From: Escherichia coli
GTDB taxonomy: Bacteria; Pseudomonadota; Gammaproteobacteria; Enterobacterales; Enterobacteriaceae
Strand: one strand, 5' to 3'
Length of the DNA: 26,066 nt
Assembly: GCF_003334255.1 (NCBI RefSeq)
Contig: NZ_QOWU01000064.1
Each line of letters begins with the position of its first letter. Position 1 is the first letter of the stretch. Below, piece by piece: positions 10,311-11,933 of the stretch. Made by a program: the position numbers and the translations under genes. Below the pieces are notes generated by a model. That model made no database searches, was not told the DNA's origin, and was given only the letters and a program-made list of their open reading frames with translations.

Positions 10311-11933
10311 ATGAATACTCTCCCTGAACATTCATGTGACGTGTTGATTATCGGTAGCGGCGCAGCCGGACTTTCACTGGCGCTACGCCTGGCTGACCAG
10401 CATCAGGTCATCGTTCTAAGTAAAGGCCCGGTAACGGAAGGTTCAACATTTTATGCCCAGGGCGGTATTGCCGCCGTGTTTGATGAAACTGACAGCATTG
10501 ACTCGCATGTGGAAGACACATTGATTGCCGGGGCTGGTATTTGCGATCGCCATGCAGTTGAATTTGTCGCCAGCAATGCACGATCCTGTGTGCAATGGCT
10601 AATCGACCAGGGGGTGTTGTTTGATACCCACATTCAACCGAATGGCGAAGAAAGTTACCATCTGACCCGTGAAGGTGGACATAGTCACCGTCGTATTCTT
10701 CATGCCGCCGACGCCACCGGTAGAGAAGTAGAAACCACGCTGGTGAGCAAGGCGCTGAACCATCCGAATATTCGCGTGCTGGAGCGCAGCAACGCGGTTG
10801 ATCTGATTGTTTCTGACAAAATTGGCCTGCCGGGCACGCGACGGGTTGTTGGCGCGTGGGTATGGAACCGTAATAAAGAAACGGTGGAAACCTGCCACGC
10901 AAAAGCGGTGGTGCTGGCAACCGGCGGTGCGTCGAAGGTTTATCAGTACACCACCAATCCGGATATTTCTTCTGGCGATGGCATTGCTATGGCGTGGCGC
11001 GCAGGCTGCCGGGTTGCCAATCTCGAATTTAATCAGTTCCACCCTACCGCGCTATATCACCCACAGGCACGCAATTTCCTGTTAACAGAAGCACTGCGCG
11101 GCGAAGGCGCTTATCTCAAGCGCCCGGATGGTACGCGTTTTATGCCCGATTTTGATGAGCGCGGCGAACTGGCCCCGCGCGATATTGTCGCCCGCGCCAT
11201 TGACCATGAAATGAAACGCCTCGGCGCAGATTGTATGTTCCTTGATATCAGCCATAAGCCCGCCGATTTTATTCGCCAGCATTTCCCGATGATTTATGAA
11301 AAGCTGCTCGGGCTGGGGATTGATCTCACACAAGAACCGGTACCGATTGTGCCTGCTGCACATTATACCTGCGGTGGTGTAATGGTTGATGATCATGGGC
11401 GTACGGACGTCGAGGGCTTGTATGCCATTGGCGAGGTGAGTTATACCGGCTTACACGGCGCTAACCGCATGGCCTCGAATTCATTGCTGGAGTGTCTGGT
11501 CTATGGCTGGTCGGCGGCGGAAGATATCACCAGACGTATGCCTTATGCCCACGACATCAGTACGTTACCGCCGTGGGATGAAAGCCGCGTTGAGAACCCT
11601 GACGAACGGGTAGTAATTCAGCATAACTGGCACGAGCTACGTCTGTTTATGTGGGATTACGTTGGCATTGTGCGCACAACGAAGCGCCTGGAACGCGCCC
11701 TGCGGCGGATAACCATGCTCCAACAAGAAATAGACGAATATTACGCCCATTTCCGCGTCTCAAATAATTTGCTGGAGCTGCGTAATCTGGTACAGGTTGC
11801 CGAGTTGATTGTTCGCTGTGCAATGATGCGTAAAGAGAGTCGGGGGTTGCATTTCACGCTGGATTATCCGGAACTGCTCACCCATTCCGGTCCGTCGATC
11901 CTTTCCCCCGGCAATCATTACATAAACAGATAA
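10311..11933 (+). CDS. nadB: L-aspartate oxidase (NAD biosynthesis)
   Basis: 540 aa; N-terminal FAD-binding Rossmann motif [15 protein letters not shown]; recognised as NadB. Confidence 0.96.

Follow-up and report, generated by a model that had tools for sequence, protein, structure and literature searches.

The window analyzed here, a 26,066-nucleotide stretch of Escherichia coli contig NZ_QOWU01000064.1, contains two convergently transcribed genes, nadB and trmN (yfiC), whose coding sequences run into one another at their 3′ ends. The genes, and the shared segment as read in each of them, are as follows:

10311-11933, plus strand: nadB CDS, L-aspartate oxidase, 540 aa, stop TAA at 11931-11933 (ORF list, RefSeq)
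11918-12655, minus strand: trmN (yfiC) CDS, tRNA1(Val) m6A37 methyltransferase, 245 aa (sequence, ORF list, RefSeq, homologues named TrmN)
11918-11933, plus strand: shared segment in the nadB reading, (CA)T TAC ATA AAC AGA TAA, i.e., ..H Y I N R stop
11918-11933, minus strand: shared segment in the trmN reading, (T)TT TAT CTG TTT ATG TAA, i.e., ..F Y L F M stop

The 16 nucleotides common to the two genes (11918-11933; sequence, ORF list) include both stop codons. On the plus strand, nadB ends in ..GGC AAT CAT TAC ATA AAC AGA TAA; on the minus strand, trmN ends in ..GCT TTT TAT CTG TTT ATG TAA, its stop (11920-11918) being the reverse complement of the plus-strand TTA at 11918-11920. The RefSeq record is identical to the window and places nadB at 10311-11933 (+) and trmN at 11918-12655 (−), with exactly 16 bases in common. 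An earlier note on this DNA had put the nadB stop 16 nt inside the 3′ end of trmN; sequence, ORF list, and RefSeq agree with its coordinates and its gene names. The mechanically called trmN ORF (11918-12775, minus strand) starts at a GTG (12775), 40 codons upstream of the annotated ATG; both the annotation and the homologues speak for the 245-aa TrmN rather than this longer ORF.

The arrangement is that of a convergent overlapping pair: the genes lie on opposite strands, both are conserved and protein-coding, and the overlap is kept in orthologous loci. There is virtually no chance that it reflects an annotation or sequencing artifact, with one of the genes in fact ending earlier. That reading is already refuted by the sequence itself, as the stop codons are unambiguous, both frames are open as far as their stops, and identical geometry recurs in thousands of independent E. 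coli genomes and 76 other species. The nadB/trmN overlap is real, ordinary, and already present in the standard E. coli annotation.

Fifty-eight convergent CDS overlaps have been counted in E. coli (Lillo & Krakauer, 2007; PMC2174442), and two of the five convergent pairs in the 26-kb window overlap (nadB/trmN by 16 nt, yfiM/kgtP by 4 nt); the nadB/trmN overlap is therefore not statistically unusual. It resembles the pairs of that survey in joining opposite-strand genes that have a few 3′-terminal codons in common, one ORF being extended into its neighbor. With its 16 nt, it exceeds the modal 4-nt class. Third codon positions of nadB and trmN stand opposite each other at 11921, 11924, 11927, 11930, and 11933, which corresponds to phase (123:213) in the notation of PMC2174442. 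This phase is the least frequent, accounting for 22% of those E. coli convergent overlaps that exceed 4 bp, and is rated the least mutationally robust (PMC2174442); a reading of facing third positions as the least constraining phase was dropped on these grounds.

Distribution of the overlap

A 701-nt query over the junction found a match in every complete E. coli genome searched (5426/5426; rpoE / nadB / trmN / srmB region), and the 81-nt junction was found in 5409 of the 5426, with the annotation “nadB / trmN” in all matches listed. Beyond E. coli, a TrmN scan with one genome per species yielded 80 loci, all from Enterobacteriaceae, with TrmN identities of 71-97%; TrmN homologues overall number in the thousands. 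In 79 of the 80 species loci, nadB lies convergently downstream of trmN, with NadB identities of 83-98%. The overlap is 16 nt long in 76 of these 79 loci, 8 nt in two (L006, L033), and 12 nt in one (L035). The remaining locus, L026 (Intestinirhabdus alba), is without nadB downstream of position 3738 and keeps the trmN tail ..CACATAAACAGATAG.

Two records are of separate interest. E. coli BH212 (NZ_CP029239.1) is the sole genome of the 5426 in which less than 80% of the 701-nt query is covered in one place; its match covers the query only from base 247 onward, and on the nadB side the annotation reads “hypothetical protein,” which suggests a disrupted nadB. A record titled “Chryseobacterium sp. 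18061” (L038) carries an Enterobacteriaceae-type srmB-trmN-nadB locus with a TrmN 81% identical to that of E. coli, and this assembly is probably mislabeled or contaminated.

The first homologue list covered only TrmN identities of at least 70%; outgroup loci were taken from the contigs of 50%-identity TrmN family representatives:

L084 (P0125 cluster), Yersinia type: convergent nadB, 70-nt spacer
L088: convergent nadB, 119-nt spacer
L082 (P0124 cluster), Hafnia type: a Branch_AA_trans-family (PF05525) transporter gene separates trmN and nadB
L086, Rosenbergiella/Tatumella type: rpoE directly after trmN, no nadB there
L087: rpoE directly after trmN, no nadB there

As the overlap is missing from all five of these loci, it appears to be a derived character of the family Enterobacteriaceae and not of the order, a history of spacer loss that we infer from a handful of outgroup loci. 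The Yersinia spacer contains an 8-bp G+C-rich hairpin, AGGGCGCA-N11-TGCGCCCT, followed by AUUUCAAUCU on the nadB strand; a hairpin akin to this one was presumably lost together with the spacer in Enterobacteriaceae.

Protein tails and the origin of the overlap

Per-site variation, computed over 76 species, differs between the two sides of the junction. Within the overlap, changes are confined to third positions of trmN codons, the first base of the Leu codon, and the central base of the trmN stop. Further into trmN (11934-11978), sites are conserved with the period of three that marks purifying selection; in nadB just upstream of the overlap (11873-11917), changes occur at all three codon positions. 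The TrmN C-terminal residues F-Y-L-F-M are found in 79 of 80 species, and a C-terminal L-T-x-x-F-Y-L-x-[F/M/L] is kept in TrmN representatives down to 38% identity. A search for solved structures returned none close to TrmN; the best match (E = 2e-9) covers residues 28-169 only, with the C-terminal motif outside it.

In Enterobacteriaceae, NadB ends in a conserved stretch ..SILSP, two to three variable residues, and then [H/Y]-[I/M]-[N/K]-[R/K]-stop; the linker before the tail is variable and shows a one-codon length difference. NadB of Yersinia ends in ..TILHP* and that of L088 in ..TILQP*, both without the extension, such that the Enterobacteriaceae protein is 6-7 residues longer at its C-terminus. 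The corresponding feature in the window is:

11910-11930, plus strand: NadB C-terminal extension G-N-H-Y-I-N-R, past the ancestral end ..P-S-I-L-S-P (comparison with Yersinia and L088)

The codons TTY TAY YTN TTY ATG TRR read, as their reverse complement in the nadB frame, YAC ATR AAN ARR TAR. The sequence of the NadB tail is thus dictated by the TrmN tail, as it consists of the antisense codons of F-Y-L-F-M-stop, and the nadB stop itself is complementary to the first two bases of the TrmN Tyr242 codon together with the third, wobble base of the Phe241 codon. In natural variants, the two tails come apart. A 1-nt deletion in L006 gives a NadB ending in ..SPGIIT*; L035 has a shorter NadB tail, ..SILSHK*; and in L033 (Escherichia sp. 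ESNIH1, 3700-3745) a 14-nt tandem duplication of the overlap segment (ACTACATAAAGAGA x2, nadB sense) gives ..NYIKRTT* with the overlap of 8 nt, the two gene ends being partly uncoupled. In these three loci and in L026, the NadB tail is altered or nadB is lost, and the TrmN tail is kept. These comparisons indicate that the TrmN C-terminal motif is the constrained partner and the NadB tail its passenger.

It appears extremely unlikely that the NadB extension is itself functional, whether in folding, FAD-domain packing, or interaction with NadA, with both tails under selection. While [H/Y]-I-[N/K]-[R/K] does occur in 76 of 79 species, as this reading would have it, that sequence is arithmetically fixed by the antisense of TrmN F-Y-L-F-M-stop; moreover, the tail is altered in three species (..SPGIIT*, ..SILSHK*, ..NYIKRTT*), is missing from the NadB of Yersinia and L088, and follows highly variable residues that differ in length by one codon.

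With TrmN as the constrained partner, the simplest reading of the sequence comparison is a loss of the spacer. In the ancestor of Enterobacteriaceae, the short spacer of a convergent trmN-nadB pair would have been lost, other Enterobacterales keeping a spacer with a hairpin. The original nadB stop, directly after ..P-S/T-I-L-x-P, would have disappeared along with it, and the nadB ORF would have been extended by 6-7 codons into the 3′ end of trmN, as far as the first in-frame stop. This new stop, TAR, would be the antisense of the conserved Tyr242 codon and the Phe241 wobble base; the shared bases would thereafter have evolved under TrmN constraint, with the NadB tail carried along. Short convergent overlaps are generally thought to originate by stop-codon loss or mutation (PMC2174442); unlike a point mutation in a stop codon, the event at nadB/trmN likely removed a whole spacer of 70-119 nt, judging from the outgroups.

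Since TrmN coding constraint and spacer loss explain the evolutionary pattern, selection on regulation is not needed, and because that same constraint explains the conservation of the overlap, the conservation cannot be used as evidence for regulation. The long persistence of a phase rated least robust might hint at some selection. The overlap and its listing as an excludon (see below) are already known, and the evolutionary account is what is added here. As such, nadB/trmN offers a worked example of spacer loss, ORF extension to a stop supplied by the antisense strand, and constraint from one partner, and a caution that a conserved overlap should not be read as antisense regulation.

Transcription past the stop codons

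Neither strand has a convincing intrinsic terminator within 100-200 nt past either stop. A consensus scan of 10000-13200 returned four sites, as compared with 3.4 expected from shuffles, those near the junction being weak, and the first 200 nt past the two stops fold with no more than ordinary stability (z = −0.87 and +0.81). In this respect, nadB/trmN is like most E. coli convergent overlaps, for which a Rho-independent terminator is predicted for only 23 of 116 genes (20%; PMC2174442). The features identified past the two stops are:

12048-12060, plus strand: weak terminator-like site with tail CTTCGTTTTC (consensus scan)
11696-11684, minus strand: weak terminator-like site (consensus scan)
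12008-12034: perfect 10-bp inverted repeat GCATTCTCCC-N7-GGGAGAATGC, 75 nt downstream of the nadB stop
12034-12191, plus strand (nadB-sense RNA): C-rich, G-poor stretch, C 33-38%, G 15-22%, C/G ~2 (composition scan)
11760-11877, minus strand (trmN-sense RNA, downstream of the trmN stop): C-rich, G-poor stretch, C/G 1.7-2.0 (composition scan)

The plus-strand site at 12048-12060 was rejected as a terminator, as it has no U-rich tail in most of the other species examined. A bidirectional intrinsic terminator was likewise rejected, given weak sites at shuffle level, ordinary folds, and a hairpin at 12008-12034 that is without a U-tract on the nadB strand. As there is no intergenic space, any terminator must sit within the coding sequence of the partner, and since each stop codon is already inside the other ORF, a transcript ending before it reaches that ORF is impossible. 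The claim in the earlier note that the transcripts must overlap for want of room for a terminator holds for the full-length mRNAs, which are complementary over at least 16 nt and are listed as an excludon, but it understates the extent: with no intrinsic terminator for 100-200 nt past either stop, the RNA overlap probably amounts to hundreds of nucleotides rather than 16.

The inverted repeat at 12008-12034 falls within trmN codons 207-217 (A-F-S-P-Q-A-G-E-C), and its only U-tract is a UUU on the trmN strand. Over 76 species, no other 33-nt window in the entire trmN gene folds as stably: its mean MFE is −11.8 versus −8.8 kcal/mol for synonymous-codon shuffles (the largest excess in trmN), and 74-79% of species are more stable here than their own shuffle mean. 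In pair counting, covariation in the E. coli register did not exceed that of shuffles; a shifted register gave a weak signal (23/500, 33/500) in which the informative wobble-wobble pair is unpaired in 35/70. Strand preference is indecisive, with 48 species favoring the trmN sense and 27 the nadB sense, and Rfam returned no match at 11500-12800, even at E ≤ 1. The repeat was rejected as an established conserved RNA element, as it lies in conserved codons (A-F-S-P .. G-E-C) and shows no significant covariation; it is a candidate 3′-end-protecting or pausing stem-loop for the nadB RNA. The two C-rich stretches, on account of their rut-like composition, are candidate Rho loading zones.

Rho naturally acts on antisense RNA that is not translated, and Rho-dependent termination within the neighboring gene appears likeliest for both transcripts, to judge by the composition of the sequence. 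Each RNA polymerase would run on into the antisense strand of its neighbor, no terminator fitting between the genes. Once the ribosome leaves at the stop, Rho would terminate transcription on the C-rich, G-poor untranslated antisense RNA, and each mRNA would end 100-300 nt inside the neighboring gene, giving a nadB/trmN mRNA overlap of roughly 100-300 nt. Collision of the converging polymerases may contribute; collision-driven termination has been documented at convergent E. coli pairs (bioRxiv 10.1101/2022.10.23.513370).

According to Dar and Sorek (2018; PMC6061677), Rho-dependent transcripts end at stem-loops without a U-tract, with rut sites just downstream. The nadB strand matches this anatomy in composition only: like the ends described in that study, it has a stem-loop lacking a U-tract (10 bp, 75 nt past the stop), and C-rich, G-poor sequence adjoins it. 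Unlike the mapped ends described there, the nadB stem-loop is known from sequence alone, lies within the trmN CDS, and is largely explained by conserved codons. On the trmN strand, a fold of the downstream region gave no stem-loop comparable to 12008-12034. The accessible supplementary tables of the SMRT-Cappable-seq study have no entry for the nadB/trmN 3′ ends, and those of Adams et al. (2021) and TERMITe (PMC7815308, PMC12207403), to the extent that they are accessible, have none for nadB, yfiC, or trmN.

Possible antisense interference and other overlaps in the window

The pair nadB-yfiC is one of 165 convergent excludons that ExcludonFinder lists for E. coli MG1655 (NAR 2025; PMC12288877), a listing that reflects overlap of the transcripts in 50% or more of 58 MG1655 transcriptomes. 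It is like the other convergent excludons of that study in that the 3′ ends of the transcripts overlap; the hallmark of an excludon is mutually exclusive expression, and nadB-yfiC was assigned from transcript overlap (PMC12288877). The authors argue that such overlaps are regulatory and report higher synteny of excludon pairs in general; their convergent excludons could not be validated with p19 dsRNA data (PMC12288877). Neither gene appears, under the names nadB, yfiC, or trmN, in the accessible p19 dsRNA-capture supplements; the method has low sensitivity for 3′ regions and weakly expressed genes.

Antisense interference between the two genes is no more than a possibility. Any such interference, whether from colliding polymerases or from RNase III acting on the duplex, would be a side effect at weakly expressed genes, not the reason that the overlap persists. 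The alternative is that selection has kept the overlap as a regulatory device, making it a true convergent excludon in which nadB, derepressed at low NAD, and trmN are mutually lowered via collision or RNase III. The place of nadB-yfiC in the 165-pair list, the fixation of the arrangement across Enterobacteriaceae, the lack of a terminator able to separate the genes, and the documented collision-driven termination at other E. coli convergent pairs are all consistent with such a device. However, TrmN coding constraint fully accounts for the conserved 16 nt, and related families do well with the genes set apart by a spacer, with another gene between them, or with nadB not adjacent. A literature search found no paper linking nadB and trmN expression, and we are aware of nothing obvious in physiology that would connect NAD synthesis with tRNA(Val) m6A37. 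These points, together with the absence of the genes from the accessible p19 supplements and the failed validation of convergent excludons by p19 data, make a selected device unlikely.

A more elaborate proposal, in which the overlap, the stem-loop at 12008-12034, and the C-rich tract form a dedicated module, seems very unlikely. Here derepressed nadB would run ~100-250 nt antisense into trmN and lower TrmN and m6A37 via collision or RNase III; if true, the module would couple NAD status to tRNA(Val) modification in Enterobacteriaceae. We instead consider it quite probable that the account given above holds as a whole, with loss of the spacer, run-on into the neighboring gene, likely Rho-dependent ends, and incidental interference.

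The second convergent overlap in the window, between yfiM (24019-24342, +) and kgtP (24339-25637, −), covers 24339-24342. It is like nadB/trmN in being a convergent CDS overlap that also appears in the E. coli excludon list (PMC12288877), and unlike it in measuring only 4 nt. The window additionally contains same-strand start/stop overlaps of 1 or 4 nt within operons, which represent ordinary translational coupling geometry:

889: acpS/pdxJ, same strand, 1 nt
3274-3277: rnc/era, same strand, 4 nt
7689-7692: rseC/rseB, same strand, 4 nt
8645: rseB/rseA, same strand, 1 nt
9900-9903: rpoE/rseD, same strand, 4 nt

Rfam matches at gathering level elsewhere in the window comprise the following:

411-487, plus strand: ohsC (antitoxin sRNA adjoining shoB)
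3900-4114, minus strand: rncO leader
6897-7728, plus strand: AsrC (antisense RNA of rseC mRNA)
14195-14237, minus strand: ES036 sRNA, between srmB and yfiE
25963-26066, minus strand: start of a 5S rRNA gene
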